Positions 9,842 to 27,610 of a DNA stretch of 42,580 nt are shown here, piece after piece. Source of the DNA: a virus (taxonomy: Duplodnaviria; Heunggongvirae; Uroviricota; Caudoviricetes). Under the pieces are notes generated by a model. The model had not been told where the DNA came from, did not search any database, and saw only the letters and a program-made list of their open reading frames with translations. The stretch is taken from positions 1 to 42,580 of the IMG/VR virus record IMGVR_UViG_2917393062_000002. One strand, 5' to 3'. Numbering within the stretch: position 1 is the first letter of the stretch; each line of letters opens with the position of its first letter. The position numbers and the translations under genes were made by a program.

Positions 9842-9846
9842 AAAGT

Positions 9847-10085: not shown

Positions 10086-10086
10086 C

Positions 10087-10603: not shown

Positions 10604-10620
10604 ATAATGAATTCAAATCA

Positions 10621-10644
10621 AACCCGCTTCGGCGGGTTTTTTTA
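10621..10644 (+). terminator. Rho-independent terminator
   Basis: CCCGC-ttcg-GCGGG + TTTTTTT. Confidence 0.65.
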
Positions 10645-11037: not shown

Positions 11038-11110
11038 GGGTCCTTCCTGAATTTTGGAACACCGAGGGGATGCGGACACGCAGAAATCGCCAAATTTTTG
11101 CATTTTCATC
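11038..11110 (+). repeat. Copy A of a conserved ~50-90 bp element (GGGTCCTTCCTGAAnnnTGGAACACCGAGGGGATGCGGACnCGCAnAAA...TTTTTGCATTTTCAT)
   Basis: Near-identical to copies at 19365 and 21835; lies about 120-165 bp upstream of helper terS. Confidence 0.6.
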
Positions 11111-11203
11111 GTTCATCACCACCACTGTAATTTATTGATAATGAAAGGTTAAAAAAAAGTTGGTGTCGAAAGTGCTCGTTTTTTGTTCATCACTGGAGGG
11201 TAA

Positions 11204-11704
11204 GTGGATAAGGAACTGAAACACCTTGTTCTTAATGTCAGCCAGTTGGCTGCGCTGTCTGGTGTGCACCGACAGACTGTCGCATCAAGAATCAAAAATG
11301 TCCGAACAGCGGGTGGACATGAAAGTAATCTCAAGCTGTATAAACTTACCGATATTCTGGCAGAGCTAATGAAATTGCCACCGCCTGTCGCTGAAGGGGA
11401 GATGGATCCCCATGACCGAAAAGCCTGGTATCAGTCAGAACGTGAACGCCTGAAATTCGAACAGGAGGTCGGAGAACTGATCCCTGCGTCTGATGTCGCT
11501 CGTGAATTTGCTGAAATGGCAAAGGCTATGGTGCAGGTTCTGGAAACTCTCCCCGATATTCTTGAACGCGATTGTGCTCTTGAGCCTTCGGCTGTCATGC
11601 GGGTGCAAAGCATTATTGATGATCTGCGTGACGAAATTGCACGACGGGTGGCAGATGACAGCAAACAGGAAGATGCAGAGGAGGAAAATCAGGAGGACGA
11701 ATAA
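11204..11704 (+). CDS. terS: Terminase small subunit (helper phage)
   Basis: GTG after GGAGGG; 166 aa; HTH-like N-terminus, acidic C-terminus; stop overlaps terL start; paralogue at 21994..22476. Confidence 0.65.
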   Translation: MDKELKHLVLNVSQLAALSGVHRQTVASRIKNVRTAGGHESNLKLYKLTDILAELMKLPPPVAEGEMDPHDRKAWYQSERERLKFEQEVGELIPASDVAREFAEMAKAMVQVLETLPDILERDCALEPSAVMRVQSIIDDLRDEIARRVADDSKQEDAEEENQEDE

Positions 11705-12699
11705 TGCCTGTGCAGGCGACCGCCAGATCGTTGAAACTGGATACAGGCCAGTTAATTAAAGCGCCGCGCAGAATGCCTGTTGCCGAAGCGGTACAAAAAT
11801 TTATGCGAGTCCCTACATCTGGTGGCAACTCTGTTCCGTGGGATCCGATGGTTGCACCGTATGTGATTGAACCCATGAACTGCCTGTCGTCCCGTGAGTT
11901 TGATGCGGTTGTTTTTGTTGGTCCTGCCCGTACGGGCAAGACTAACGGCCTGATTGATGGCTGGGTGGTTTATAACATTGTCTGCGATCCGTCTGACTTT
12001 TTGCTGGTGCAGATGACGCAGGATAAGGCGCAGGAGCACTCCAAAAAGCGCCTGGCAAGAACATTTCGTTGCAGCCCGGAGGTCAGAAAACGCCTCAGCC
12101 CACGCCGTAACGATAACAACGTTCATGACAAATATTTTCTGTCGGGCAGCTTTCTGAAAATCGGCTGGCCTTCCATCAATGTCATGTCATCCTCTGATTT
12201 TAAATGTGTGGCGCTGACTGATTACGACCGATTTCCTGAAGATATCGATGGCGAAGGTGATGGTTTCTCCCTGGCTTCAAAACGTACCACAACATTTATG
12301 TCAGCTGGTATGACGCTGGTGGAGAGTTCTCCCGGGCGTGAAATCACAAACAGCAAGTGGCGCAGAACGTCACCGCATGAAGCCCCGCCCACCACGGGGA
12401 TCCTTTCTCTGTATAACCGTGGCGATCGTCGTCGCTGGTACTGGCCTTGTCCGGATTGTGGTGATTATTTCCAGCCATCGATGGAGGCTATGACGGGATA
12501 TCGTGACAATCCTGATCCTGTAAAAGCCAGTGAAGCGGCTCATATATTGTGTCCGCATTGTGGCAGTCAAATCACTGCAGATATGAAACGTGAACTGAAT
12601 GGTCGCGGTGTCTGGTTGCGTGAAGGTGAGCAGATTGACAGAGAAGGGAATGTTACCGGAACGCCACGTCATTCAAGGATAGCCAGCTTCTGGATGTAG
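11704..12699 (+). CDS. terL: Terminase large subunit (GpA-like), N-terminal ATPase part, interrupted by island insertion
   Basis: 331 aa with P-loop VGPARTGKT and CPDCG...CPHCG Zn-finger-like motif; ends ...IASFWM then TAG supplied by inserted DNA; continues in frame at 22703 after removing the insertion. Confidence 0.8.
   Translation: MPVQATARSLKLDTGQLIKAPRRMPVAEAVQKFMRVPTSGGNSVPWDPMVAPYVIEPMNCLSSREFDAVVFVGPARTGKTNGLIDGWVVYNIVCDPSDFLLVQMTQDKAQEHSKKRLARTFRCSPEVRKRLSPRRNDNNVHDKYFLSGSFLKIGWPSINVMSSSDFKCVALTDYDRFPEDIDGEGDGFSLASKRTTTFMSAGMTLVESSPGREITNSKWRRTSPHEAPPTTGILSLYNRGDRRRWYWPCPDCGDYFQPSMEAMTGYRDNPDPVKASEAAHILCPHCGSQITADMKRELNGRGVWLREGEQIDREGNVTGTPRHSRIASFWM
12688..12699 (+). other. Left junction (attL-like) with core CTGGATG
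   Basis: TTCTGGATG|TAGGGTACATTTC: terL sequence changes to AT-rich island DNA; same 7-bp core at 22696..22702. Confidence 0.5.
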
Positions 12700-12860
12700 G
12701 GTACATTTCTTACCTGTTTTTATGTTCTGGTGTCGTTTTATAGTCTTTTCAATGAGTTGTGATTTTTTGAGTTTCCTCTCTTTACTTGATAATGAGTTAG
12801 TTTATCGCTTGTTATCGACTTGAATGGACTACATGACGGACTAAAAAATGAGGGCGACAG

Positions 12861-14099
12861 ATGTCGGTAAAGCCATTAACCGTGACTGAAGTTAAGGGGA
12901 TGAAACCACGTGAAAAGGACTATGCTGTTTATGATGGGTTCGGTTTATTGCTGAATGTGAGTAAAGCTGGTGGGAAAGTGTGGCGTTTTCGTTATAGCCA
13001 TCCGATAACGAAGAAACGGCAGACATACACGATAGGGCGTTTTCCTGAATTCTCACTCGCGGAAGCACGGGAAGTACGTGATGAACTTCGGCGAATGATT
13101 GCACGTGGAGTTGATCCAGTGACAGAGAAGAAAAATCGTAAAATTGAGATGGCACTAAAAAATCTACAGACATTTGAATCTGTTGCTAATGCATGGGTTG
13201 CCTTTAAAAAGGGAGCAGAATTGCGGAAGCCTACGTTAAATAACATCGAATATGAAGTATATAAATATCTTGTTCCTTTCTTTGGTAAATATAGTATAGA
13301 TAAGATTACAGCGCCATTAGCAATTAAGATACTGGATGCAGTATCTGATAAAAATGCGTTGCAAAAAAAATTAATATCAAGATTAAATGAAATTATGAAT
13401 TATGCCGTAAATTGTGGTGCGTTAAAAATAAATCCATTGCTTAAAATAAAGACTGCATTCGCTGGAAAGAAAAATAAATCATTGGCTGCGTTACCTATAG
13501 AAAGATTACCTGAATTTCTGAGTTGGTGGGATAGTGTGCCTCATAACTACCAAATAGCGCATAATGCACTTTTATTCCAGGTATTGACCATGGTCAGGCC
13601 GGGAGAGGCGATCCAGGCAGAGTGGTCAGAGATAGATTTTGATGCTGGTCTGTGGGTTATTCCTGAGCATAAAATGAAATGCCATCGTGAACATGTTGTG
13701 CCCCTGTCATCACAGGCCATTAGCATCCTGAGAACAATGCAGGAAATAAAAAGAGGGCGTTATGTATTCTATTCATCCAGAACCAAAGACGCGCCTATGG
13801 GGAGGAAAACTATAAATACTGCGATTACCTCCAGTAAGTTCAAAGGGATTGTAACGTTACATGGTTTTCGTTCGATGTGGAGTACGCTTTTAAATGAGGA
13901 AGGATTTAACCCCGATGTAATTGAGGCTGCATTAGCACATAAAAGTGGTGATAAAATAAGAGATATTTATAATAGAACTACTTATTTAGAACAACGCAAA
14001 ATTATGATGCAATGGGTAGGCGATTTTTTTGATGAGGCGAGAAAAGGGGTAATTAATAGATCCTGTGGTAAGAAAGGTTTGAGAATAGTAAATGGTTGA
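12861..14099 (+). CDS. int: Tyrosine integrase, P4-type
   Basis: 412 aa; P4-type N-terminal arm-binding signature (GGKVWRFRYSHP...FPEFSLAEAREVRDELRRMIARGVDP); C-terminal catalytic region with HGFRS and conserved Tyr; about 160 bp from attL. Confidence 0.85.
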   Translation: MSVKPLTVTEVKGMKPREKDYAVYDGFGLLLNVSKAGGKVWRFRYSHPITKKRQTYTIGRFPEFSLAEAREVRDELRRMIARGVDPVTEKKNRKIEMALKNLQTFESVANAWVAFKKGAELRKPTLNNIEYEVYKYLVPFFGKYSIDKITAPLAIKILDAVSDKNALQKKLISRLNEIMNYAVNCGALKINPLLKIKTAFAGKKNKSLAALPIERLPEFLSWWDSVPHNYQIAHNALLFQVLTMVRPGEAIQAEWSEIDFDAGLWVIPEHKMKCHREHVVPLSSQAISILRTMQEIKRGRYVFYSSRTKDAPMGRKTINTAITSSKFKGIVTLHGFRSMWSTLLNEEGFNPDVIEAALAHKSGDKIRDIYNRTTYLEQRKIMMQWVGDFFDEARKGVINRSCGKKGLRIVNG

Positions 14100-14111
14100 G
14101 GAGTTCAGCAA

Positions 14112-14315
14112 ATGAATACCAATGAAGATATTTTATTTACTAAAGACGTAATGAAAATTTTGCGCTATGGGGCAATGAGCGCATTCATTAATTTCTGGAA
14201 AGATGAAAGCAATGGTTTTCCTCAACCGTTCAGAATTGGGCGGCGGCATACCTGGCACCGTAGAGATGTAGAGGCATGGTTAGATAAACAACGAGAACAG
14301 GCCAATCCCCACTAA
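14112..14315 (+). CDS. AlpA-like small DNA-binding protein (excisionase/regulator candidate)
   Basis: 67 aa; AlpA-like pattern (FPQPFRIGRRHTWHRRDVEAWL); immediately downstream of int. Confidence 0.5.
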   Translation: MNTNEDILFTKDVMKILRYGAMSAFINFWKDESNGFPQPFRIGRRHTWHRRDVEAWLDKQREQANPH

Positions 14316-14374
14316 TAATATCTTTCATACCCCGCACACAATGCGGGGTTTTTTGTATGTGAGGTAAAAAAACG

Positions 14375-14956
14375 ATGAATAAAAATATTGCCGTGACGGG
14401 CAAGGGTGACGCTCGTCCAGTGAAAAATTTCTGCAATATTCGTGATCTAATCGTTCTGCGCTTTGATGGCGTGGATGTTCGCGTGGTGTATCTGAATGGC
14501 GATCCGTGGTTTGTTGCAAAGGATGTTTGTGAAGCTCTGGAAATAAGCAACTCACGCGATGCTCTAAAAGCTCTGGATGTGGATGAGAAGAATACCGTCG
14601 CTTTAAGCTACGGTATTCGCGGAAATCCAAATCATAGCGTCGTTTCTGAATCTGGTTTTTACAAGCTGATCGCCAGAAGTCGCAAAGCTGTTACTCCTGG
14701 CACGTTCGCCCATCGTTTCAGTAATTGGGTATTCAGAAATGTGATACCGGGTATCAGAAAAACGGGGGCTTATGGTATCCCGTGGGGCGCATTACAGGAT
14801 TTTTCCCGCCGTAAAGAGCAATATCAGATAAGTGCCAGCGAGAAGGGGAGGGAGCTACAGGCATGTAAGCGCAAAAAGCGTGAGCTGGAGGAAGAAGAAA
14901 AAAGGCTGATACGTGAATATCAGCCTGAGTTTTACTTTGACAACTGCATTCAGTGA
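14375..14956 (+). CDS. Bro-N domain protein (antirepressor-like)
   Basis: 193 aa; N-terminal Bro-N-like motifs (WFVAKDVCEALEI, SESGFYKLIARSRK, FSNWVFRNVIPGIRKTGAYG). Confidence 0.6.
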   Translation: MNKNIAVTGKGDARPVKNFCNIRDLIVLRFDGVDVRVVYLNGDPWFVAKDVCEALEISNSRDALKALDVDEKNTVALSYGIRGNPNHSVVSESGFYKLIARSRKAVTPGTFAHRFSNWVFRNVIPGIRKTGAYGIPWGALQDFSRRKEQYQISASEKGRELQACKRKKRELEEEEKRLIREYQPEFYFDNCIQ

Positions 14957-15049
14957 CAAAACAAAGGCGACCGGGGGCGGTCGCCAATGGGAAAACACTA
15001 AACATAAGCACGGGGATGATAGCCGCTATCAGGCTGGTGGGCAATGCAA

Positions 15050-15238
15050 TCAGTCTTGTTCAGTTCGTTGCCATACCTGCAATGAGCGCGTTTCCCTGTA
15101 CTCTTTAAGGAATTGCTCAAGGGCAAAAGCACATGGCGCGAATCTTTCTGATTCATGCTCTATCTTTCTGCGCCGTCTTTTCCGTGCCGGTGATAATGTT
15201 TTGGTCAATTCTTTATCGGTCATTGTGTTGTCCTGCAT
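15050..15238 (-). CDS. Hypothetical basic protein, possibly co-transcribed with the RHH-like gene
   Basis: 62-aa minus-strand ORF downstream of the RHH-like gene; weak RBS. Confidence 0.25.
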   Translation of the reverse strand: MQDNTMTDKELTKTLSPARKRRRRKIEHESERFAPCAFALEQFLKEYRETRSLQVWQRTEQD

Positions 15239-15280
15239 AGCAATGCGCCGTAATACCTTACACCACGGCGCTGGTGATGG

Positions 15281-15460
15281 TTATTCCTGCTCTTTGGCCT
15301 TGCGACGCTGGCGGTATTCAACTTCTCGCTTTAATGCTGCTGTTACAAACTGCCCTGTACTTTCACCAGGCATTTTTACCGCCTCAACATTGTTCATAAC
15401 TTCATGCGGAACCCTTGCCGCAACTGTTTGTGATTTTGCGTTTACTGCTTTTGTCGCCAT
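15281..15460 (-). CDS. Small ribbon-helix-helix-like DNA-binding protein (candidate island repressor), 59 aa
   Basis: Minus-strand ATG at 15460 preceded by AAGGGG; MATKAVNAKSQTVAARVPHEVMNNVEAVKMPGESTGQFVTAALKREVEYRQRRKAKEQE (beta-strand then two helices); divergent from operator repeats; below ORF-track cut-off. Confidence 0.4.
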   Translation of the reverse strand: MATKAVNAKSQTVAARVPHEVMNNVEAVKMPGESTGQFVTAALKREVEYRQRRKAKEQE

Positions 15461-15510
15461 GTTGTGTACCCCTTACAAAAAACAAATGCAGTATGCAGGA
15501 AAAAAAATAA

Positions 15511-15562
15511 GTGTTCAACACTTGACGTGTTTAACACCAGGGCTTAAATTGGTGTTCAACAC
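15511..15562 (+). promoter_or_regulatory. Three palindromic operator-like sites GTGTT(C/T)AACAC overlapping a candidate rightward promoter
   Basis: GTGTTCAACAC at 15511 and 15552, GTGTTTAACAC at 15527; TTGACG at 15522 and TTAAAT about 17 bp downstream; between divergent RHH gene and rightward operon. Confidence 0.5.
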
Positions 15563-15658
15563 CTTGTTGATGCAAGGTGCAGAAACGACGAAACCCGGCA
15601 GTGCGCTAACACTAACCGGGCTTCTAACCACCAACGATAGAAAGCGTATCGAGGTAGC

Positions 15659-15866
15659 TATGTTAAATCATACCACACACCCGCAAGGGCGGGACTCGCA
15701 CAACCTGAATAAATACATCTGGCGTTTTATCGCCCTGAGCACGGCACAACCGCGCGTGATTACCATTGAGGCCACCAGCGAACAGGAAGCACGCCAGCAA
15801 TCTCCTGATGGCTGTGTGATGGTATTCGCCGCCCGTATTCGCCAGGGGGTGCACCATGTGCAATAA
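15659..15866 (+). CDS. Hypothetical protein (first gene of rightward island operon)
   Basis: ATG after GAGG; 68 aa C-terminal part of a 317-aa track ORF whose upstream part looks non-coding. Confidence 0.35.
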
Positions 15867-16086
15867 AAACACGCCGGACGCAGCAGGCGAAGCATTGAAA
15901 GTACTGATACATGCGCTTGTGGATATAAATTGCATGGTAGAGATCATGGAGAAGAAATCACAGTCGGAGTACGACAAAAGAAAATTTAAAACAATAAAAA
16001 TAATTACCAAAAACTCACTGACAAAAGCTACAGACATCCTCAATGAGGACACTAAAAGAATCAGGGGGAAACTGTGTGATGCATAA
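15856..16086 (+). CDS. Hypothetical protein
   Basis: 76-aa ORF overlapping upstream stop; AGGGGG upstream. Confidence 0.35.
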   Translation: MCNKNTPDAAGEALKVLIHALVDINCMVEIMEKKSQSEYDKRKFKTIKIITKNSLTKATDILNEDTKRIRGKLCDA

Positions 16087-16306
16087 AATACCTTTTGATG
16101 TTCTTATTCATTCTGAAAACGCATTAATCCGCGCAAAGGAAATGGAGGCATTATTACTTAAGTTAATGGAAGTGCCGGAAAATGGCGATGAATCATATCC
16201 CATGATGTTTTCTGCCGTGCACACATTATTAACGCCAGTAATTAACGAATTAAATACGGTGATGGCAATTCACGAGAATAATAAAACGCATCACACCGGA
16301 GAATAA
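16079..16306 (+). CDS. Hypothetical protein (start 16079, or 16043 per ORF track)
   Basis: In-frame ATG at 16079 preceded by GGGGAAA; overlaps upstream stop. Confidence 0.35.
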   Translation: MHKIPFDVLIHSENALIRAKEMEALLLKLMEVPENGDESYPMMFSAVHTLLTPVINELNTVMAIHENNKTHHTGE

Positions 16307-16311
16307 AAACC

Positions 16312-16611
16312 ATGAAACAGAAAAATTCTGGCTTTACTGCCAGCGGCCTCTCTCGGCCTGAAATCCGCCCCGGCGATATTTTCAAAGATAAATACGGCGG
16401 CACTGTAACGATTAAAAGCGTGGCGGGACGGTGTGTTACTTACCGCCGTGATGGGTACGGCTATGACTGCGTGATGCCTGTTTATCAGTTCCGGCGTGAT
16501 TTTTCTCTGGTACAGAACGCAACACGCGGTAAGCCCACCAGCAGGGAAAAAGCACGGGAAAATATTAAGAAAATAAAAAGCATGCTCAGCGCATCCAGAG
16601 GTAAAAAATGA
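16312..16611 (+). CDS. Hypothetical basic protein
   Basis: 99 aa; GGAG upstream; stop overlaps primase start. Confidence 0.4.
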   Translation: MKQKNSGFTASGLSRPEIRPGDIFKDKYGGTVTIKSVAGRCVTYRRDGYGYDCVMPVYQFRRDFSLVQNATRGKPTSREKARENIKKIKSMLSASRGKK

Positions 16612-18356
16612 AACTGGCACCGAACGTAAAAAAACAGCCTCGCGGAATAAAAAACAAAGACACAGAGGTAATTATTTTCGCGGGTAGTGATGCCTGGTCG
16701 CATGCGCAACAGTGGCAGGAGAAGGACGGTCCCGCATCCGGCGATAATGTGCCGCCTGTGTGGCTTGGGCCAAATCAGCTTGCCGAACTTGATGCGCTGA
16801 AAATTGTTCCGGATGGAAAAAAACGCGTAAGGCTGTACCAGGCCGGAGAACTGGATTTAGTGGAGACCAAAAAGATTGGTCAGAAGCTGGCGGCGGCAGA
16901 TATTCAGGATGCGAATTTTTACCCTGAAGGAATGCACGGTCAGAAGTGTGAAAACTGGCGGCGCTATTTGAATGCTGAGCGTGAAAATATTGCCGCAGGG
17001 CTTACCATGCCGGAGCAGAAAAATACGCAACTGGCACAGATGGCAGACAGTGAGCGCGCACAGATGCTTGCTGGTCGGTTTGATGGCGTATGTGTGCATC
17101 CGGAAAGTGAAATCGTTCACGTCTGGCGCGGCGGGGTATGGTGTCCGGTCAGCACAATGGAACTGAGTCGCGAAATGGTGGCGATTTATTCAGAACATAA
17201 GGCCACTTTCAGCAAGCGCGTAATCAGTAACGCCGTTGAAGCGTTAAAAGTTATTGCCGAACCAATGGGCGAGCCGTCCGGTGATTTGCTGCCGTTCGCC
17301 AATGGTGCGCTTGACCTGAAAACGGGGGAATTTTCCCCGCACTCGCCGGAGAACTGGATCACCACGCACAACGGTATTGAATACACGCCGCCAGTACCAG
17401 GGGAGAATATCCGCGACAACGCGCCAAACTTTCATAAATGGCTTGATCACGCTGCCGGAAAAGATCCGGGCAAGATGATGCGTATATGCGCCGCGCTATA
17501 CATGATTATGGCGAACCGGTACGACTGGCAGATGTTTATTGAGGCCACCGGAGACGGCGGGAGCGGCAAGAGCACTTTCACGCACATAGCCAGCCTTCTG
17601 GCAGGGAAACAGAACACAGTAAGCGCTGAGATGACATCGCTTGATGATGCTGGTGGGCGTGCGCAGGTTGTCGGGAGTCGGCTTATTGTCCTGGCAGACC
17701 AGCCGAAATATACAGGCGAAGGCACGGGCATCAAGAAAATCACGGGCGGCGACCCCGTGGAAATTAACCCGAAATATGAAAAGCGTTTCACAGCGGTAAT
17801 CAGGGCGGTTGTGCTGGCAACCAATAATAACCCGATGATATTCACCGAACGGGCCGGAGGCGTGGCACGTCGTCGCGTGATTTTCCGTTTCGACAATATC
17901 GTCAACGAGGCCGAAAAAGACAGGGAACTACCGGAAAAGATTGCGGCTGAAATCCCCGTCATTATCCGCCGATTACTGGCGAACTTTGCAGACCCTGAAA
18001 AGGCGCGGGCTTTACTACTGGAACAGCGTGACGGTGATGAAGCACTGGCGATAAAGCAGCAAACGGATCCGGTTATTGAGTTTTGCCAGTTCCTGAATTT
18101 TCTGGAGGAAGCACGCGGCCTGATGATGGGCGGCGGTGGCGATTCCGTGAAGTACACGACCAGAAACAGCCTTTACCGCGTCTATCTGGCGTTTATGGCA
18201 TACGCAGGCAGAACCAAACCACTAAACGTAAATGACTTTGGCAAGGCCATGAAGCCAGCCGCAAAAGCTTACGGACATGAATATATTACGCGAAAAATTA
18301 ATGGGGTGACGCAGACTAACGCAATAACAACCGACGATTGCGACGCGTTTTTATAA
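16608..18356 (+). CDS. Primase/helicase-type replication protein (P4 alpha / D5-like NTPase domain)
   Basis: 582 aa; Walker A GDGGSGKST, Walker B-like LIVLAD; immediately followed by an iteron array. Confidence 0.75.
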   Translation: MKLAPNVKKQPRGIKNKDTEVIIFAGSDAWSHAQQWQEKDGPASGDNVPPVWLGPNQLAELDALKIVPDGKKRVRLYQAGELDLVETKKIGQKLAAADIQDANFYPEGMHGQKCENWRRYLNAERENIAAGLTMPEQKNTQLAQMADSERAQMLAGRFDGVCVHPESEIVHVWRGGVWCPVSTMELSREMVAIYSEHKATFSKRVISNAVEALKVIAEPMGEPSGDLLPFANGALDLKTGEFSPHSPENWITTHNGIEYTPPVPGENIRDNAPNFHKWLDHAAGKDPGKMMRICAALYMIMANRYDWQMFIEATGDGGSGKSTFTHIASLLAGKQNTVSAEMTSLDDAGGRAQVVGSRLIVLADQPKYTGEGTGIKKITGGDPVEINPKYEKRFTAVIRAVVLATNNNPMIFTERAGGVARRRVIFRFDNIVNEAEKDRELPEKIAAEIPVIIRRLLANFADPEKARALLLEQRDGDEALAIKQQTDPVIEFCQFLNFLEEARGLMMGGGGDSVKYTTRNSLYRVYLAFMAYAGRTKPLNVNDFGKAMKPAAKAYGHEYITRKINGVTQTNAITTDDCDAFL

Positions 18357-18370
18357 TTTTTGGCAATTGC

Positions 18371-18590
18371 TGTCTACCTTGTCTACCTGATTACATAAAA
18401 GTTGTTTTAATTCAGTGTATTAATTTAGGTAGACAGCTTTTTTTTACTGTCTACAAGCTATCTACACTGTCTACCTGTTTTTGTAGCCAGCCGGAGGGAT
18501 GAGTAGACATCAGGTAGATAGTGGTTTTTTACTGTCTACATCCATTAAACCCGCGTCATTACTGGCCTGAGCATCTATCAGGTAGACAGA
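18371..18590 (+). repeat. Iteron array / candidate island replication origin
   Basis: At least 10 copies of TGTCTAC(C/A) or its complement GGTAGACA in both orientations, interspersed with A/T tracts, directly downstream of the primase/helicase gene. Confidence 0.75.
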
Positions 18591-18645
18591 GTAGACAAGG
18601 TGGGGGTAGGCCTAAAACTTTTTAAACGAGGGGGTAAAAATAAAA

Positions 18646-18903
18646 ATGCACACATCAGAAAAATTTAACAATCAGAAGAAATCACATAACCGCGCCATTG
18701 ACCTTACAGAGCACTGGCTGAGGGTGGCGATAAAAATCATCGACCGCAACGCGGGAGAAGGATACGCGAAAGCGCATCCCGAACTGATAAGCGCATTCAT
18801 GAACACAGCGGCGGCAAACTTTGCCACGCTGACAGAACGGGAGATTGCGGAAGCGGAACAGGTGACAACTATCAACGTTAAAACCGGAGAACAGACAGCA
18901 TGA
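18646..18903 (+). CDS. Hypothetical protein
   Basis: 85 aa; GAGGGGG upstream; stop overlaps SSB start. Confidence 0.4.
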   Translation: MHTSEKFNNQKKSHNRAIDLTEHWLRVAIKIIDRNAGEGYAKAHPELISAFMNTAAANFATLTEREIAEAEQVTTINVKTGEQTA

Positions 18904-19322
18904 CAGCACAGATAGCGGCTTACGGGCGGCTGGTGGCTGACCCGCAGTTAAAGACCACCAGCAAGGGAACACAAATGGCGATGGCGAGTATGGCTGTTCC
19001 CCTGCCGTGCAGCCAGGCCGATGACGGAACGGCGACAATGTGGTTATCCGTCCTGGCGTTTTGCAGACAGGCCGACGCACTGGCAAAACACCGCAAAGGC
19101 GAACTGGTGAGCGTGGCGGGTAACATGCAGGTAAGCCAGTGGACAGGCCAGAACGGCGAAACGCGGCAGGGCTGGCAGGTTATCGCAGACAGCGTAATCA
19201 GTGCGCGAACGGCGCGACCGGGCGGCAAAAAAGGCCAGCAGGGCCAGGCTACTGACGCACTGAACAGGGCAAAACAACAGGCGGGAAATGATGATCCGTA
19301 CGGGGATAACATACCGTTTTAA
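18900..19322 (+). CDS. ssb: Single-stranded DNA-binding protein (SSB-like)
   Basis: 140 aa; OB-fold-like core (LSVLAFCRQADALAKHRKGELVSVAGNMQVSQWTGQNGETRQGWQVIADSV), Gly/Gln linker and acidic tail ending DNIPF like SSB DDDIPF. Confidence 0.7.
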   Translation: MTAQIAAYGRLVADPQLKTTSKGTQMAMASMAVPLPCSQADDGTATMWLSVLAFCRQADALAKHRKGELVSVAGNMQVSQWTGQNGETRQGWQVIADSVISARTARPGGKKGQQGQATDALNRAKQQAGNDDPYGDNIPF

Positions 19323-19338
19323 GCAACGAGTGACAGAA

Positions 19339-19362
19339 GCCGGGATTTTTCCCGGTTTTTTT
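19339..19362 (+). terminator. Rho-independent terminator
   Basis: CCGGG-atttt-CCCGG + TTTTTTT after ssb. Confidence 0.65.
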
Positions 19363-19364
19363 AT

Positions 19365-19450
19365 GGGTCCTTCCTGAAAAATGGAACACCGAGGGGATGC
19401 GGACGCGCAGAAAACGGCTGGTTTTTGCATTTTCATGGTGGCGGCAGCAT
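19365..19450 (+). repeat. Copy B of the conserved element
   Basis: TTTTTTTATGGGTCCTTCCTGAAAAATGGAACACCGAGGGGATGCGGACGCGCAGAAAA...GCAGCAT; identical to copy C over about 55 bp including spacing from the upstream terminator. Confidence 0.6.
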
Positions 19451-19730
19451 GTGTGATAATTAATTGATAATTAAAAATTATTTCTGTTTTCACCTGTACA
19501 ATCTTTTTTCTCCCCCTGTCATCAGACCAGTTTGCAATTAATTGAAATATATAAACAAATTTGTTTTTCACCTGCCAAATGGAGCTGCCTATGTCAAATG
19601 TGATTGGGATTGGTGATGCTTATCACTGGCACACAAAAATGAATATTGCATATTTTGCAATGCAATTGATCATCATTGCATTTTGATCAACACTGCACAC
19701 TTCAAATATCAGTCTGAAACGAGGTGTTAC

Positions 19731-19934
19731 GTGAACGAAAAGAAAGCTGTATCGGTTTATCTCGACAATGAAACGGCGCTTGCCCTGTACCGTTTGCGCG
19801 AAGATATTCGCAAGAAAAATGCAGAAACGGGAATGGATCTTCCCACGCCAACAGTCGGCTGGCTTGCCCGTTCATTGTTGCGTCAAAGCCTGGGAATTAA
19901 GGCAGACAAAAAAGATTTGCCTCATGAGGGGTAA
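19731..19934 (+). CDS. Hypothetical small protein
   Basis: GTG 7 nt after GAGG; 67 aa; immediately upstream of island capsid gene. Confidence 0.35.
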   Translation: MNEKKAVSVYLDNETALALYRLREDIRKKNAETGMDLPTPTVGWLARSLLRQSLGIKADKKDLPHEG

Positions 19935-19936
19935 GG

Positions 19937-21781
19937 TTGATGGAAATTTCATTGTATGAGCCAATCGAAGGCGTAACCGCAAGACAGTTCCGCGATTCAC
20001 TTATGGCTGCAAAAGGCCCGGTTACGGTTGCCATAAACAGCGGTGGCGGAAATGTAACTGACGGCATGGCGATGTTTAACGCCCTGAGAACGTACAAAGG
20101 CCACACGGTCGCAAGAATCGACGGTATCGCCGCATCAATGGCTACCATTGTTGCGCTCGGTGCCCGGCGTGTCGTGATGGCTGATAACGGCTGGTGGATG
20201 ATCCATAACCCGTGGGGCGTTTTTGTTGGTGAATCGGAAGATCTCCGCAAAAAAGCCGACATGATGGAAAAAATCGGCAAGGCAATGCTTGATACCTACG
20301 TTGCCAAAACCGGATTACCGGAATCAGAAATCAAAGCCATGATGGATGCTGAAACATGGCTGACGGCTGAGGAAGCGAAAGAAAAAGGATTTATTGATGA
20401 AATTTATCCGGCAGAGGGACAGGCATTAGCCATGGCCCCTGGTTGCGGATCACTGGTAGAGAAATTTACCAGAACGCCGGAAAGCATCATCGCATCGATG
20501 AAGAAAGGCGACACGGGATCAGCAAACGAAAGAGAGAAGCGAAAAAAAGAAGCCGACGTTTTGTTTGCTTACTGGAAGAATTCTTCGTATGAGTGGTTGC
20601 CAGGAATTGTTGAAGAATTTATCAGCGGTTCCATCACTGCCGAAGAAGCACGTAAAAAACACTTAGAAAAACTGGCGGAAGAGACAACGCCGTGCGCAGG
20701 ACCAGGAGCAATGAACATGTATGCAGGTAACGGTAATATTGTTGGGGATTCAGTAAAAGCGGCGCTTATGGCACGCAGTGGACTGGCGGATGTGGAAAAA
20801 GATAACCGCTATAACGGTTATTCATTGCGGGAACTGGCGCGCGCTTCTCTGGTGGATCGTGGGGTAAGCGGCATTCCAGGTAATCCGCTGGGCATGGTTG
20901 GAATGGCGTTTACTCACAGCAGTAGTGATTTTGGCGGCATTCTTGCGGACGTGGCGCATAAATCATTACTGAAAGGCTGGGAAGATTCGCCGGAGACGTT
21001 CCACGCCTGGACGAAAAAAGGCACTCTGACAGATTTTAAGGTTGCCCATCGTGTTGGTATGGATGGTTTTAAATCTCTGCGAAAAGTTTTGCCAGGCAGC
21101 GAATATAAATACGCGTCCACGTCCGATCGCAGCGAGCCAATTGCACTGGCAACTTATGGCGAACTGTTCAGCATAGATCGCCAGGCAATCATCAATGACG
21201 ACATGAGCGCACTGACTTCAATCCCCCAGCAAATGGGGGCAGCAGCAAGCCGCACAGTCGGGGATCTGGTTTATGCCGTTCTCGTGGCCAATCAGAAGAT
21301 GGGCGATAAAAACCCGCTCTTTGATGCGAAACACAGCAATCTGATTAACAGCGAACTTGATATTCCAGGCCTGAGTGCAGCCCGTAAAGCTATGCGTATG
21401 CAAAAAAATAATGCTGGTGCTGTACTGAATATTCCGCCTCGTTTCCTGTTAGTTCCGGTAGAACTGGAAGACAGAGCAACCCAGCTTATTCGTTCTACGT
21501 CGCTACCAGACGCGCAGAACAGCGGTGTGTTTAACCCATACAATGATGCACTGACAGTAATCACAGAGGCGCGACTTGATGCCGACAGCGTGAAATCCTG
21601 GTATCTGCTTGCGGGTCAGGGAAGTGATACAATTGAAGTCGCTTATCTCGATGGTATTGATACCCCGTACCTGGAACAGCAGCAGGGCTTTACGGTTGAC
21701 GGCGTAACTTTCAAAGTGCGCATTGATGCCGGAGTTTCTCCTCTGGACTGGCGCGGGATGGTTAAGTCATCAGGTGGTTAA
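19937..21781 (+). CDS. Island prohead protease (ClpP-like)-linker-major capsid protein fusion
   Basis: 614 aa; N-terminal ClpP/S14-like domain; C-terminal ~330 aa about 70% identical by eye to the helper capsid domain (GNGNIVGDS...IEVAYLDGIDTPYLEQQQGFTVDG). Confidence 0.8.
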   Translation: MMEISLYEPIEGVTARQFRDSLMAAKGPVTVAINSGGGNVTDGMAMFNALRTYKGHTVARIDGIAASMATIVALGARRVVMADNGWWMIHNPWGVFVGESEDLRKKADMMEKIGKAMLDTYVAKTGLPESEIKAMMDAETWLTAEEAKEKGFIDEIYPAEGQALAMAPGCGSLVEKFTRTPESIIASMKKGDTGSANEREKRKKEADVLFAYWKNSSYEWLPGIVEEFISGSITAEEARKKHLEKLAEETTPCAGPGAMNMYAGNGNIVGDSVKAALMARSGLADVEKDNRYNGYSLRELARASLVDRGVSGIPGNPLGMVGMAFTHSSSDFGGILADVAHKSLLKGWEDSPETFHAWTKKGTLTDFKVAHRVGMDGFKSLRKVLPGSEYKYASTSDRSEPIALATYGELFSIDRQAIINDDMSALTSIPQQMGAAASRTVGDLVYAVLVANQKMGDKNPLFDAKHSNLINSELDIPGLSAARKAMRMQKNNAGAVLNIPPRFLLVPVELEDRATQLIRSTSLPDAQNSGVFNPYNDALTVITEARLDADSVKSWYLLAGQGSDTIEVAYLDGIDTPYLEQQQGFTVDGVTFKVRIDAGVSPLDWRGMVKSSGG

Positions 21782-21807
21782 CAGATAATCAGGCATGTTA
21801 TGTTTTT

Positions 21808-21833
21808 TTGCGGCCTTCGGGCCGCTTTTTTTA
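21808..21833 (+). terminator. Rho-independent terminator
   Basis: GCGGCC-ttcg-GGCCGC flanked by T-runs. Confidence 0.65.
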
Positions 21834-21834
21834 T

Positions 21835-21920
21835 GGGTCCTTCCTGAAAAATGGAACACCGAGGGGATGCGGACGCGCATAAATCGAGAGATTTTTGATA
21901 TTTTATGCGTGCAGCAGCAT
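21835..21920 (+). repeat. Copy C of the conserved element
   Basis: Same core as A and B; about 110-160 bp upstream of island terS. Confidence 0.6.
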
Positions 21921-21993
21921 AAGTTTAATGCTTTGATTTTTAACATTATTGATTTGTTTTGTTGAAAAAGCGACCGTGCAGTGAGGTGGTAAA

Positions 21994-22476
21994 GTGGAAC
22001 TGAGCAAAATGCAGGTTAATGTCTCACAACTGGCAGACCTGGTAGGCATGAATCGAAATCTTGTTTCACGCCGTTTGCGTGAGCTGGAGCTTGTTGGCGG
22101 GAATGGTGAGAATCTTAAACTGTATGAACTCGGTCCGGCACTTCAGGCACTACTGACCCCATCAATGAAAGAAAATGGTGAAATGTCACCACAGGATCGG
22201 AAAGCCTGGTATCAGTCAGAAAATGAAAGGCTGAAATTTGAAGCAGCTTCACGTGAATTACTCCCTGTCGAAGAGGTGGCCCGTGAATATTCATCTCTGG
22301 CTAAAGCCGTAGTCATGGTGCTGGAAACGTTGCCGGATATTCTTGAGCGCGATTGCGCTCTCCAGCCTTCCGCAGTCATACGAGTGCAACGCATTATTGA
22401 TGATCTACGTGATGAAATGGCGAGAAAAATTGCAGAAAGCGATTCAGATAATGGCTGGCCTGCATGTACAAGATGA
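21994..22476 (+). CDS. terS: Island terminase small subunit paralogue
   Basis: 160 aa; C-terminal half almost identical to helper TerS (VLETLPDILERDCAL.PSAV.RVQ.IIDDLRDE), N-terminal HTH region divergent. Confidence 0.65.
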   Translation: MELSKMQVNVSQLADLVGMNRNLVSRRLRELELVGGNGENLKLYELGPALQALLTPSMKENGEMSPQDRKAWYQSENERLKFEAASRELLPVEEVAREYSSLAKAVVMVLETLPDILERDCALQPSAVIRVQRIIDDLRDEMARKIAESDSDNGWPACTR

Positions 22477-22692
22477 GTGAACTGCTGGAAAGAAACGGCT
22501 ACGGGAAAGAACCATTATCGTGATGGTATTGCGATATCAAAATTCATTTATAGCGACATATTTAGCTTTTAATTAGTATTGCCGCCTTTTTTTCTTTTTT
22601 ATCACTTAAACAGGTACTAAATCTTGGACTATGTAGATGGGGCCATAGCAAAATAGTATTTTATAATCATTTAGTTACCTTTTATTTACTTC

Positions 22693-22702
22693 TTCCTGGA
22701 TG
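22693..22702 (+). other. Right junction (attR-like) with core CTGGATG
   Basis: AT-rich island DNA ...TTCTTCCTGGATG|GAAGGGCCGG resumes terL coding sequence. Confidence 0.5.
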
Positions 22703-23827
22703 GAAGGGCCGGCTGCTGCGTATCAGACCTGGGCGCAACTGGTTTACAAACTACTGACTGCTGAGCAGGAATATGAAGCCACAGGCAGTGAGGAAACACT
22801 GAAGGCGGTGATTAACACCGACTGGGGATTACCTTATTTGCCTCGTTCCGCAATGGAGCTGCGTAGTGCGGATGTTCTGATGCAGCGGGCCGAGGACTAC
22901 GGTAAGCGCCTGGTACCGCCGAAAGTACGTTTTCTTATTGCGGCTGTGGACGTGCAGGGCGGGAAGAACCGACGGTTTGTGGTGCAGATTATTGGCTATG
23001 GCGAGGACGGCGAACGCTGGCTGGTGGACCGTTATAACATCCGACAGTCATTGCGCTGCGATGAAAATGGCGAAGCATTACCTGTGCATCCCGGGGCTTA
23101 TCCTGAAGACTGGCAGTTGCTGGTCACCGATGTACTGGAGAAAACGTATCCGCTCCAGTCCGATCCGGCCCGCAGAATGCCTGTACTGGCAATGGCGGTG
23201 GACAGTGGTGGTGAGGACGGGGTGACGGATAACGCCTATAAATTCTGGCGAAAATGTCGTCAGGATGGACTGGGGCGACGGGTTTTTCTGGTAAAGGGAG
23301 ACAGCACGAAACGCCAGAAAATTATCACCATCACACACCCGGATAATACCGGGCGAAGCGATCGTCGTGCTGATGCTCAGGGAAAGGTGCCGGTATATCT
23401 CCTGCAGACAGACCTGCTGAAAGATCAACTAAGCAATAACCTGCAACGTGAAATGCCCGGACCGGGCTACATTCATTTTCCTGACTGGCTCGGGGAGTGG
23501 TTTTATGAAGAGTTGACCTATGAGGAACGCGGTGCTGACGGGAAATGGCGCAAGCCGGGAAAAGGGAATAACGAAGCGTTTGACCTTTTTTGCTATGCCC
23601 ATGCTGTCGCCATTCTGCGTGGCTATGAAAAAATCCGTGACTGGAGCAATCCTCCCCAGTGGGCAAGGGGGCAGGATGCTGATGCGGGGGCTTCAGCAGA
23701 CAGACGTTCTTCCGGCACAGTGGACAAGAAAAACGTTGCCGGAAGAGATGAGCGGCAAAAAGCAGCGTCGCCGGAAGCGTTATCCGGAAACTGGTTATCA
23801 CTACCCCGAAACGGAGGATGGTTGTGA
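22700..23827 (+). CDS. terL: Terminase large subunit, C-terminal (nuclease) part
   Basis: 375 aa GpA-like C-terminal domain; in frame with 11704..12696 once 12697..22702 is removed. Confidence 0.8.
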   Translation: MEGPAAAYQTWAQLVYKLLTAEQEYEATGSEETLKAVINTDWGLPYLPRSAMELRSADVLMQRAEDYGKRLVPPKVRFLIAAVDVQGGKNRRFVVQIIGYGEDGERWLVDRYNIRQSLRCDENGEALPVHPGAYPEDWQLLVTDVLEKTYPLQSDPARRMPVLAMAVDSGGEDGVTDNAYKFWRKCRQDGLGRRVFLVKGDSTKRQKIITITHPDNTGRSDRRADAQGKVPVYLLQTDLLKDQLSNNLQREMPGPGYIHFPDWLGEWFYEELTYEERGADGKWRKPGKGNNEAFDLFCYAHAVAILRGYEKIRDWSNPPQWARGQDADAGASADRRSSGTVDKKNVAGRDERQKAASPEALSGNWLSLPRNGGWL

Positions 23828-24042
23828 AAAAAGATGAGATTTTCCAGATGCTGGTTATCGTGCGTCAGGCATACAGGGATTCCCTGGATGGTAAAAGTGT
23901 GTCTTTTACCGGGGTGAATGGCAGGGCGATCACCAACCATGATCCTGTTGCATTGCGCAGGGAGCTTGAATACTGGGAAAAACGCTGGGCGGCGGCCTGC
24001 CAGCCCACAAGGAAACCGTACAAACTCGCCCGTTTCTCCTGA
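23818..24042 (+). CDS. Head-tail joining protein, lambda gpW-like
   Basis: 74 aa between terL and portal; gpW-like pattern (GKSVSFTGVNGRAIT...RRELEYWEKR). Confidence 0.5.
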   Translation: MVVKKDEIFQMLVIVRQAYRDSLDGKSVSFTGVNGRAITNHDPVALRRELEYWEKRWAAACQPTRKPYKLARFS

Positions 24043-24051
24043 GGTTTTTTT

Positions 24052-25563
24052 ATGGGTTTTTTTGATAAAGCACTTGGCGCAATTGCGCCAGGGTGGGCGG
24101 TTTCGCGCGCCAGAAACAAAATGCTGCTGAGAGCTTATGAGGCGGCGCAGCCTTCACGCCTGAATAAAGCCCGGCGCGAGAGTCGTTCTGCCGAGACTGC
24201 GGTTTTTTCTGCCTGTACCTCGTTAAGGGAGCAGGCCAGGGCGCTGGATGAAGATCACGATATCGTGATTGGTCTGCTGGATAAGCTGGAAGAGCGGGTT
24301 ATTGGCGCGCAGGGGATCCAGGTTGAACCACAACCACTGAGAAGCGATGGCACCCTGCATGAATCGCTGGCAGAGCAGATCTCGGCATTGTGGTCTGAAT
24401 GGTCTGTTCGCCCTGAGGTCACGGGGATGTTCACCCGTCCGGAGGCCGAACGGATGGCATTGCGATCTGCTTTGCGTGATGGCGAGATGTTCGTACAACT
24501 GGTGCGTGGTCCTGTCGCCGGTCTGAATCATTCCACTGTGGTGCCATTATCACTGGAACTTCTCGAAGCAGATTTTGTTCCGGTCAGTCTGAACACGAAC
24601 GCGGGTCAGCAAGTCCGTCAGGGCATTATTCTTAACAACTGGGGGCGGCCTGTAGGGTATCGGGTTTATAAATACCATCCTGCAAATATGCGTGGATTCA
24701 GCGCCGATCTCAAAACTGTTCACGCAGACAGCATGCTTCATCTGGCGATGCGGAAACGGCTTCATCAGGTGAGAGGTGTCAGCCTGTTACATGGTGTGAT
24801 TCGCCGGATTGCTGATCTGAAAGATTACGAAGAATCAGAGCGTGTGGCTGCCCGTATTGCTGCCGCGCTGGGTTTCTACATTAAGCGTGGTGATGCCGCC
24901 AGCTTTCCGACGGATAACGACTGGACACCCACAGAACAAAAACCCCGGTATTTTGATATTTCACCGGGCATGATTTTTGACGAACTGGCCCCCGGTGAAG
25001 ATCTGGGGATGGTGGAGTCGAATCGTCCGAATGTTCATCTTTATGAATTCCGGAACGGGCAGTTGCGTGCTGTGGCTGCCGGAACCCGTGGCAGTTATTC
25101 CAGTATTGCCCGTGACTATAACGGCTCCTACAGTTCGCAGCGTCAGGAGCTGGTGGAAGGTTACGAAGGCTACGGGGTTTTACAGCAGTGGTTTGTCGGT
25201 CAGTACAGCCGCCCGGTGTACCGGGCATGGCTGGAGCAGGCGATACCTTTTCTTGAAATTTCTCCTGATGTGGATATGTCCACACTTTTCAATGCCACTT
25301 ATCTTGGCCCGGTGATGCCGTGGATTGATCCGGTGAAGGAGGCTGCAGCATGGCGGGCCATTCTTCGCGGTGGTGCCGGGACGGAGGCTGAGTGGATACG
25401 TGCCCGTGGGCAGTCACCGCAGGAGGTCAAACGTCAGCGACTGCGTGAAACTGAATTTAACCGGGAAAACGGGCTGGTGTTCGATTCTGACGCCGCTAAC
25501 GATAAAGGAGCGATCCCTGATGCAGCAAATGATAAACCCGCGTCTTCGCGGGACGATGATTAA
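24052..25563 (+). CDS. Portal protein (lambda B-like)
   Basis: 503 aa; size and position between W and protease/capsid; acidic C-terminus. Confidence 0.75.
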   Translation: MGFFDKALGAIAPGWAVSRARNKMLLRAYEAAQPSRLNKARRESRSAETAVFSACTSLREQARALDEDHDIVIGLLDKLEERVIGAQGIQVEPQPLRSDGTLHESLAEQISALWSEWSVRPEVTGMFTRPEAERMALRSALRDGEMFVQLVRGPVAGLNHSTVVPLSLELLEADFVPVSLNTNAGQQVRQGIILNNWGRPVGYRVYKYHPANMRGFSADLKTVHADSMLHLAMRKRLHQVRGVSLLHGVIRRIADLKDYEESERVAARIAAALGFYIKRGDAASFPTDNDWTPTEQKPRYFDISPGMIFDELAPGEDLGMVESNRPNVHLYEFRNGQLRAVAAGTRGSYSSIARDYNGSYSSQRQELVEGYEGYGVLQQWFVGQYSRPVYRAWLEQAIPFLEISPDVDMSTLFNATYLGPVMPWIDPVKEAAAWRAILRGGAGTEAEWIRARGQSPQEVKRQRLRETEFNRENGLVFDSDAANDKGAIPDAANDKPASSRDDD

Positions 25564-27610
25564 TCCCCGCGCCAGCCTTGCGGGGGTGGATGCCGCTAAT
25601 GGTCAGTGCTGGTATGAAATCCGTGCACAGACTGCCGGGCGGGTGGAAATTTACCTCTATGACGTGATTGGCGGATGGGGCATCACCGCGCAGCAGTTTA
25701 TTTCTGACTGTAAAAATGCGGGAGTGTTTGAGGCCAGCGCCATTGATCTGCATATCCACAGCCCGGGCGGTGATGTGATGCAGGGCTTTGCCATCTTTAA
25801 CACGCTGTCACGCCTGAAAGCGAAGGTGGATATCTGGGTGGACGGTGTTGCTGCCAGCATGGCCTCCATGATTGTCTGCCTGCCCGGCGCCACCGTGCAT
25901 ATGCCTGAAAACGCCTGGCTGATGGTGCACAAGCCGTGGGGCGGGATCGCCGGTGATTCTGATGATATGCGTGATTATGCCGACTGGCTGGATCGCAATG
26001 AGGCGCTGATGCTGTCAGCCTACATGAATAAAACCGGACTCGGGCAGGATGAGCTGGAAGCCATGCTGAAAGCAGAAACCTGGCTGAACGGTGCTGAAGC
26101 CGTGGAAAAAGGCTTCGCTGATACGCTTGAACCTGAATTACAGGCTGCGGCCTGTGTGAACCAAAATAAACTGAAGGATTATCATAACATGCCAAAACAG
26201 CTTAACGCGCTTTTTGCTCCACGTGCAGAAACGACGAACGGACAGCCGCAGGAGACGAAAGCAACCCCGCAAAATGCGCAACAGATCGCTGCTCAGCAGA
26301 CACCATCAACCGGAAATGTGGATATCAGCGCAATTGCTTCGCAGGTTCAGCAACAACTGATGGCAGCCAATGCGGAACGTGTGCAGGCGGTAACCGCAGT
26401 TTTTGCCTCTTTCCCGTCTTATGCCGCACTGAAAGCGGAGTGTCTGAACGACATGACCTGTACGGAAGCACAGGCCCGTGAAAAACTGTTGCAGGCGCTG
26501 GCAGCCGGAACGACACCAAGTGCAGGCCCGGGCGCTGTTCATATTCATGCCGGGAACGGTAATCTGGTCGGCGATTCCATTCGTGCGGCTGTGATGGCAC
26601 GCGCCGGATATGCCGAAGCAGAAAAAGATAATGCTTATAACGGTTTTACTCTGCGCGAGCTGGCGCGTGCTTCGCTGGTTGATCGCGGTATCGGTATCTC
26701 CGGTCATTCCGCACCGATGGCGATGGTTGGGCTGGCATTTACTCACAGCAGCAGCGATTTCGGCAATATCCTGATGGATGTGGCTCATAAAGCTGCGTTG
26801 CAGGGATGGGATGATGCCAGCGAAAATTTTGACAAATGGACCCGCAAGGGAACGCTGACTGATTTTAAAACCGCGCATCGTGTCGGGCTGGAAACTTTCC
26901 CTACGCTGCGAAAAGTATTGCCGGGGGCTGAATATAAATATGTGACCCTGAAAGATCGTGGCGAACCGATTGCACTGGCGACTTATGGCGAATTGTTCAG
27001 CATTGATCGCCAGACCATCATCAATGATGACCTGGATATGCTGACCCGTATTCCGATGGCAATGGGGGCGGCAGCGCGTACTACCGTGGGTGATCTGGTC
27101 TGGGCCGTGCTGACCAGCAATCCGAAAATGTCGGATGGTAAACCGCTGTTCCATGCAGATCATGGCAACCTGGTGACTGCCGATTTGTCTATTGAGGGGC
27201 TGGATTCCGGGCGTAAAGCCATGCTGCTCCAGAAATCGGGTGACCGTCGCCTGAACATTCGTCCTGCTTTTATGTTGACGCCTGTTGCCATTGAGTCGCG
27301 TGCCAATCAGTTGATTAAGTCTGCCAGCGTGCCTGGTGCAGATGCGAACAGCGGCATTATTAACCCGATTCAGAATTTTGCCACGGTTCTGTCAGAGGCC
27401 CGTCTTGATGACAGCAGCCCGACGGATTATTACCTGGTGGCAGCGCAGGGGCGTGACACGATTGAAGTGGCTTACCTCGACGGTATTGATACGCCGTATC
27501 TGGAGCAGCAACAGGGCTTTACGGTTGATGGTGCAGCATTCAAGGTGCGCATTGATGCCGGAGTGGCACCGCTTGACTGGCGTGGCATGGTCAAAGTGAA
27601 AAAACAATAA
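25520..27610 (+). CDS. Helper prohead protease (ClpP-like)-scaffold-like linker-major capsid protein fusion
   Basis: ATG at 25520 after AAGGAG (track ORF begins 25370); ClpP-like N-terminal domain, about 130-aa Q/A-rich linker, HK97-fold-like C-terminal capsid domain. Confidence 0.8.
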   Translation: MQQMINPRLRGTMINPRASLAGVDAANGQCWYEIRAQTAGRVEIYLYDVIGGWGITAQQFISDCKNAGVFEASAIDLHIHSPGGDVMQGFAIFNTLSRLKAKVDIWVDGVAASMASMIVCLPGATVHMPENAWLMVHKPWGGIAGDSDDMRDYADWLDRNEALMLSAYMNKTGLGQDELEAMLKAETWLNGAEAVEKGFADTLEPELQAAACVNQNKLKDYHNMPKQLNALFAPRAETTNGQPQETKATPQNAQQIAAQQTPSTGNVDISAIASQVQQQLMAANAERVQAVTAVFASFPSYAALKAECLNDMTCTEAQAREKLLQALAAGTTPSAGPGAVHIHAGNGNLVGDSIRAAVMARAGYAEAEKDNAYNGFTLRELARASLVDRGIGISGHSAPMAMVGLAFTHSSSDFGNILMDVAHKAALQGWDDASENFDKWTRKGTLTDFKTAHRVGLETFPTLRKVLPGAEYKYVTLKDRGEPIALATYGELFSIDRQTIINDDLDMLTRIPMAMGAAARTTVGDLVWAVLTSNPKMSDGKPLFHADHGNLVTADLSIEGLDSGRKAMLLQKSGDRRLNIRPAFMLTPVAIESRANQLIKSASVPGADANSGIINPIQNFATVLSEARLDDSSPTDYYLVAAQGRDTIEVAYLDGIDTPYLEQQQGFTVDGAAFKVRIDAGVAPLDWRGMVKVKKQ

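Follow-up and report, generated by a model that had tools for sequence, protein, structure and literature searches.

What is the function of a dense cluster of short repeats located immediately 3′ of a helicase gene in the IMG/VR virus record IMGVR_UViG_2917393062_000002? The stretch analyzed here comprises 42,580 bp (hereafter, the window); the cluster spans positions 18371–18597, belongs to neither strand and contains 12 sites with the core TCTAC and the extended consensus CTGTCTACCT. The initial annotation, made from the letters of the sequence, took it for an iteron-type replication origin of an island, read by the initiator encoded next to it. This proposal is supported by orthology with the phage-inducible chromosomal island (PICI) EcCICFT073, by a match of the neighboring initiator, Pri-Rep, to PDB entry 1KA8, and by co-variation of the repeat word with the initiator sequence. 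Because of these three lines of evidence, together with the enrichment of the sites and a layout resembling the phage P4 origin (ori), we consider it highly probable that the array serves a Gram-negative, PICI-type phage satellite as its vegetative replication origin. The type of origin, its position, the repeat word and the dependence on Pri-Rep have been published for EcCICFT073; the feature belongs to this published class and is orthologous to its tested member, and it is therefore already known.

Architecture of the iteron array

The exact heptamer TGTCTAC occurs ten times on the two strands of the window, and nine of these copies lie within 18371–18597; whole-window shuffles preserving dinucleotide composition contain 2.2 copies on average and never more than 7. 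With at most one mismatch to the heptamer allowed, 12 sites fall within a single 230-bp interval, compared with a mean of 0.43 for other intervals of this size and a maximum of three outside the array. A chance origin of the repeats is ruled out by these shuffle and sliding-window counts. The word used in the window is TGTCTACC. At least ten copies of the 8-mer TGTCTAC(C/A) had been claimed; exact matches to it number only seven, but the count holds for the 7-mer, for the 5-mer core or with one mismatch. Similarly, the array does start at 18371 but ends at 18597 rather than 18590.

The intergenic region holding the array (18357–18645) was read directly. Its first iteron is found 14 nucleotides 3′ of the initiator stop codon (18354–18356), which confirms that the array directly follows the gene encoding the GDGGSGKST motif (16608–18356). 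The left six-iteron module (18371–18474, plus strand) consists of sites at 18371+, 18380+, 18429−, 18448+, 18459+ (TATCTAC) and 18468+, and the right module (18503–18597, minus strand) mirrors it with sites at 18503−, 18514− (TATCTAC), 18533+, 18582− and 18591−. Between them, at the dyad center, there is a weak minus-strand site TGGCTAC (18483–18489), which is an exact iteron in one relative (E166) and is missing from islands of the CFT073 or IHE3034 type. The presence of both orientations, as originally reported, is evident from the pattern of the 12 sites, >><>>> < <<><<, and the start-to-start spacings of 9-49-19-11-9 / 15-20 / 11-19-49-9 describe a near-perfect dyad centered near 18484.

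The A/T tracts noted between the repeats are also present, namely T8 at 18438–18446, T6 at 18524–18529 and an AT-rich spacer at 18387–18428. The latter (77–83% A+T, no strand) is the 49-bp spacer of the left arm; it separates iteron 2 from iteron 3, so that iterons 1–2 flank it on one side and iterons 3–12 on the other, and it presumably serves as the DNA-unwinding element. Its 49-bp counterpart in the right arm is not rich in A+T and carries a non-iteron block CCGCG(Y)CATTACTGG. This block, AAACCCGCGTCATTACTGG (18547–18564, no strand), is invariant or near-invariant in an alignment of nine PICIs and in 50 unique relatives, while nearby spacers have drifted.

No Rfam match was found inside the array. 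A long-range stem pairing the end of pri-rep (18342–18353) with the conserved block (18546–18557) was considered and rejected as a conserved structure, because relatives change one side without compensation. An iteron-plasmid oriV of the Rep/pi/TrfA type was rejected as well. Such origins combine tandem direct iterons of 17–22 bp with a Rep_3-type dimer/monomer initiator and DnaA boxes, whereas the iterons described here measure 8–10 bp, occur in both orientations and accompany an initiator with a superfamily 3 (SF3) helicase, and the interval 18300–18700 contains no DnaA box, IHF consensus or GATC.

Relation to the EcCICFT073 origin and its initiator

The region 3′ of pri-rep in EcCICFT073 was identified as ori by Fillol-Salom et al. 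2018 (PMC6092414), who found that a thermosensitive plasmid carrying the cloned rep–ori segment yields colonies at 44 °C and that its Δrep derivative yields none; the same work gives an AT-rich region bordered by iterons as the hallmark of PICI origins. In the EcCICFT073 sequence taken from NC_004431.1, Pri-Rep differs from the window protein by four substitutions in the last 100 residues. Since the two proteins are 89% identical overall and all 11 iteron positions align between the two intergenic regions (~76% of columns identical), we regard the window array, on sequence grounds, as an allele of the published and tested origin. The published deletion primer EcoCFT073-pri-4c carries CTGTCTACCCTGTCTACC right after the pri stop codon, and its reverse complement contains CGTTTTTATAATTTGTTGCAATGGCTGTCTACCCTGTCTACCTGAG, which joins the end of pri to the first two iterons.

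The same replication module is found at 90% identity in EcCIIHE3034 (integrated at cspD–clpS) and EcCIATCC25922, both of which the supplement of Fillol-Salom et al. 2018 (PMC6092414) lists as PICIs. In all three islands, as in the window, the origin lies 3′ of pri-rep and precedes an 85-residue open reading frame (ORF85) and ssb, uses the word CTGTCTACC, and includes the AT-rich spacer, the conserved block and a ribosome-binding-site block. Gene order is also shared, as are a nearly identical C-terminal domain of Pri-Rep and two cos sites, the number reported for EcCICFT073. The differences concern ~24% of intergenic nucleotides relative to EcCICFT073, mostly in spacers, the extra weak central site, and T-runs at positions where EcCICFT073 differs. 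Furthermore, the window island encodes a ClpP–capsid fusion and a DUF1441 TerS-like protein, whereas islands of the EcCICFT073 type possess capsid and decoration genes, and its insertion site is a prophage terL gene instead of a place in the chromosome.

Pri-Rep (16608–18356, plus strand; 582 residues) is composed of an N-terminal Toprim-like module (residues 1–~135), D5_N, an SF3 helicase whose Walker A motif reads GDGGSGKST, and a C-terminal origin-binding winged helix (~486–574). It matches the Pfam domains D5_N, DUF5906 and Pox_D5, and it falls slightly under the cutoff of TIGR01613 ("phage/plasmid primase, P4 family"). Over residues 326–756 of P4 alpha, which cover the helicase and origin-binding parts, the two proteins share 41% identity. 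Residues 486–574 match the P4 alpha origin-binding winged helix (PDB 1KA8, E = 4.9e-6), and residues 194–441 match the self-loading helicase of a staphylococcal PICI (7OLA, 3e-14).

The N-terminal ~135 residues present a different picture. Domain searches assigned them to no family, no Toprim or archaeo-eukaryotic primase (AEP) sequence signature was detected in Pri-Rep, and resemblance to Toprim is limited to the predicted fold. The module is nevertheless conserved, with an invariant motif TEVIIFAGSDAW. A homologue search with this domain returned largely fragments, yet it revealed that the same module is joined to RepA/AAA_25-type helicases in other E. coli elements. Direct comparison of Pri-Rep with the primase region of P4 alpha gave no match. 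We regard the name "primase" as annotation by association, because a profile comparison between the N-domain and the primase region of P4 alpha does not reach significance and the module lacks an evident DxD motif; primase activity of Pri-Rep is thus putative. Of the label "primase/helicase" given to this gene, the SF3 helicase half stands, while the primase half is not demonstrable.

Conservation of the array follows the iterons. In nine E. coli PICIs, the intergenic region shares 67–97% identity with that of the window (76–79% in most copies), and the whole 3.5-kb replication module reaches ~90% identity in the best-matching genomes. The TCTAC/GTAGA core of 11 sites is invariant in these nine islands, while the spacers drift. 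In the 50 unique relatives, the majority frequency is 0.886 for core columns versus 0.692 for other array columns (Mann–Whitney p = 9e-12, a value that is descriptive and not a formal test, since the sequences are related). When viral contigs were scanned using five aligned initiators, 80 loci with 53–97% protein identity were recovered, and a scan of genome contigs with a single initiator protein yielded at least three. An array is located directly 3′ of the initiator gene in 90 of 90 related loci: wherever enough downstream sequence is available, the 330 bp that follow the stop codon contain one 6-mer at least six times, compared with at most three times in the final 330 bp of the coding sequence.

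The iteron word changes with the sequence of the initiator C-terminal domain, a relationship that is descriptive, as the relatives are not independent. Proteins with …NVNDFGK… are accompanied by CTGTCTACC, those with …NVA(E/D)FSK… by (G)CCnTCTACC, and those with …REYGAEYLTRGFKGRTQT by ATCTACCC. Serratia-type proteins with …KTN(V/T)G(M/W)RYN go with CTGTTCAC, the P4 word; …ERK(N/A)RGMVTN goes with TGTATACC, and …ERKTRGVVTN, like the Morganella type, with GTGTTCAT or TGTTCAT. A natural chimera (locus L091) combines the upstream FAEGM segment of the TGTATACC group with a KTRGVVTN segment and has GTGTTCAT iterons; here, the word goes with the KxRGxVTN segment.

Mechanism, comparison with P4 and competing explanations

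Upon induction, the unidirectional operon of the island would produce Pri-Rep, the C-terminal winged helices of which may bind the 11–12 CTGTCTACC iterons arranged as two inverted six-iteron modules. SF3 helicase domains would then load onto the DNA, plausibly in two rings of opposite orientation that form a double hexamer, and probably open the 40-bp AT-rich spacer at 18387–18428. The island SSB would coat the single strands, and host enzymes would carry out synthesis. Primers would probably be supplied by host DnaG, because Pri-Rep displays no active primase signature.

Phage P4 is among the known systems closest to this arrangement. As in the window, its initiator combines homologous helicase and origin-binding domains, an iteron cluster lies directly 3′ of the initiator gene, iterons of 8 bp have the form TGT-NNN-CC, and pairs of sites are placed 9 bp apart. 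The P4 type-1 iteron TGTTCACC is not the word of the window, from which it differs at two positions; P4 and the Serratia relative use TGTTCAC(C). No sequence counterpart of the zinc-ribbon and Toprim primase N-terminus of P4 alpha was detected in the window protein. P4 possesses two iteron regions, ori and crr, and needs both of them in cis, whereas the window has one cluster made of two inverted modules. The ori module of P4 (9300–9420 of NC_001609) reads <<<><< with spacings 10-11-21-44-10, and each window arm shows the order and spacing of this six-iteron unit, with the left arm matching when read in reverse; crr units read >><<> with spacings 9-44-18-13. The same module built from other words was found in Serratia, Morganella and viral contigs. 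In the IMG/VR contigs L072–L075 (~3250–3560), L072 and L074 among them, the arms appear in the opposite order (<<<><< … >><>>>), ~92 bp apart. This reversal shows the six-iteron module to be a movable unit of the origin.

Origins of Staphylococcus aureus pathogenicity islands (SaPIs) and Gram-positive PICIs share with the window a self-loading SF3-type helicase initiator and no DNA sequence similarity. Unlike the window island with its unidirectional transcription, the Gram-positive elements encode either an AEP-type primase domain or a stand-alone pri gene, and they are transcribed divergently. The Pri, Rep and ori side of this comparison draws on PMC6092414 and reportedly goes back to work by Ubeda et al. 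in 2007.

Several points weigh against reading the array as the active origin of this satellite. All functional evidence comes by orthology from EcCICFT073, and there the Δori plasmid gave significantly fewer colonies, not zero (PMC6092414). In P4, the cluster found immediately downstream of alpha is not the initiation site but crr, a helper region acting in cis; position alone is therefore no proof that synthesis starts at the array. A helper-embedded satellite could replicate passively with its prophage (bioRxiv 10.1101/2022.07.18.500453). Finally, the NDFGK/AEFSK rule of co-variation does not hold at one locus (L041).

The P4 precedent leads to the alternative that the array is a crr-like cis-acting replication enhancer, bound by the initiator while synthesis starts elsewhere. 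The window protein is an alpha homologue, and the P4 cluster immediately 3′ of alpha is annotated as crr (4291–4590), with ori at 9086–9809, 4.5 kb away. However, no second iteron cluster is present in the island or the window (other 250-bp intervals contain at most two TCTAC cores and at most one longer word), each arm is laid out as the P4 ori module and not as a crr unit, and rep with the adjacent ori fragment of EcCICFT073 alone is enough for plasmid maintenance. Because the cluster is single and the minimal EcCICFT073 fragment works, we judge this alternative unlikely.

Slightly less probable still is that the array, although origin-shaped, is unused in this copy and that the satellite is copied passively within its helper prophage, as its location inside prophage terL would allow. 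Tommasini et al., who call such passive replication of helper-embedded satellites possible, also state that an own primase and ori may contribute to replication (bioRxiv 10.1101/2022.07.18.500453). Against disuse, Pri-Rep is full length and intact, neither the SSB gene nor any of the 11 conserved iteron positions is damaged, and the core has been conserved in many copies, helper-embedded as well as chromosomal, which argues for ongoing selection. Passive copying would leave the preservation of intact initiator, iterons and SSB unexplained.

The initiators of iteron replicons often autoregulate. The least likely alternative, that the repeats are mainly transcriptional operators for Pri-Rep or another island protein, controlling ORF85, ssb and late genes without an origin role, could draw on this habit, on the position of the array between two co-oriented genes and on the last two iterons lying ~50 nucleotides upstream of the ORF85 start, but 18200–18800 contains no plus-strand sigma-70-type promoter or intrinsic terminator, twelve sites over 227 bp with an AT-rich core are origin-like, and the orthologous EcCICFT073 region acts as ori in the plasmid test. 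A regulatory side-role beside the origin role is possible.

A replication origin thus remains the reading that we prefer, and we infer that the window copy would be active as such.

The island, its prophage and the significance of the probable origin

The "island" of the initial annotation is indeed a satellite island, with the qualification that it resides inside a prophage terminase gene and not in the chromosome proper. It is a Gram-negative PICI of ~10 kb (~12699–22699) inserted in prophage terL, as defined by the junction sequences and the two TerL halves. An island in a late gene of a prophage represents the configuration termed "helper-embedded satellite" (Tommasini, Mageeney & Williams, bioRxiv 10.1101/2022.07.18.500453). 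That study maps integration sites and gene content and places ori downstream of pri without further dissection; the zone order it describes for such satellites (integration, Bro, replication, late) is also that of the window island (bioRxiv 10.1101/2022.07.18.500453).

The prophage occupies 1–12699 and 22700–42580. The ATPase half of its terL (11704–12699) ends in …AGCTTCTGGATG/TAG at 12699, and the nuclease half (22700–23827) restarts at 22700 in the context …CTTCCTGGATG/GAAGGG. Both junctions (~12689–12701 and ~22692–22705) bear the short direct repeat TTC(C)TGGATG, and excision of the island would restore the terL reading frame (…SFWM/EGPAA…), as predicted from the junctions. The same terL–int junction is present in 87 of 5,426 complete E. 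coli genomes.

Nearly all genes of the window lie on the plus strand. The left end of the satellite encodes an integrase identified by Pfam matches (12861–14099, plus strand), followed by a small AlpA/excisionase-like helix-turn-helix regulator (14112–14315, plus strand; phrog_66, 1e-6; weak HTH_17 match). An SSB gene had been noted after the array; the island SSB (18900–19322, plus strand; Pfam SSB, 5e-15) does lie downstream, but the first gene 3′ of the array is ORF85 (phrog_1231; 18646–18903, plus strand), which occupies the same place in all relatives examined. Further plus-strand island genes encode a Bro-N protein, an Icd-like domain protein and a DUF4222 protein. Taken together, int, alpA, pri-rep, transcription in one direction, cos and packaging genes and a length of ~10 kb make up the PICI gene set. 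A phage database search with the replication region gave no close DNA match, only a weak match to P4 alpha and matches in the cos region.

A cos-like element of ~99 nucleotides is present in three copies. One belongs to the prophage (11025–11123, upstream of its small terminase gene); the two satellite copies precede the capsid-fusion gene (19352–19450) and the DUF1441 TerS-like gene (21822–21920). Phages cdtI, Tritos and HannyBb match positions 19407–19500 with their left ends. The satellite ClpP-protease/major-capsid fusion (19937–21781, 614 residues) is a paralogue of that of the prophage (25370–27610, 746 residues), and the satellite DUF1441 small-terminase homologue (21994–22476) likewise has a prophage counterpart (11204–11704). 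The two satellite proteins are candidates for capsid or packaging redirection.

The prophage additionally encodes a lambda-P-like replication protein, RusA, holin, endolysin and the DUF1441 small terminase, as well as a structural set of portal, ClpP–capsid fusion, tail sheath, baseplate and tail fibers. In its early region, Rfam matches to isrK (2695–2772, 77.7 bits) and C4 antisense RNA (2796–2880, 75.6 bits) are located just upstream of an ORF6N-domain gene (2935–3474), a pairing that suggests a P1/P4-type antisense-RNA immunity module. Genes for tRNA-Thr(TGT) (7373–7448) and tRNA-Gly(TCC) (7452–7526) lie between the RusA/late-regulator region and the lysis genes.

For the satellite, the array marks the replication module and helps to delimit the island; it introduces no new principle. 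What is added to the published origin is a map of the individual sites, in which P4-ori-like modules form a dyad, together with a natural co-variation series predicting which winged-helix residues read which iteron positions, and an indication that "primase" may be a misnomer in PICIs. We tentatively combine these into a joint proposal, which we hold to be possible but rather less than an even chance: two P4-ori-type modules would form a dyad for head-to-head SF3 rings, winged-helix residues (NDFGK versus AEFSK, KNRGM versus KTRGV) would set the iteron word, and the N-domain would have a Toprim-like fold without a catalytic DxD, so that priming would depend on the host. If true, PICIs and helper-embedded satellites would be split into replicon-specificity groups able to coexist in one cell.
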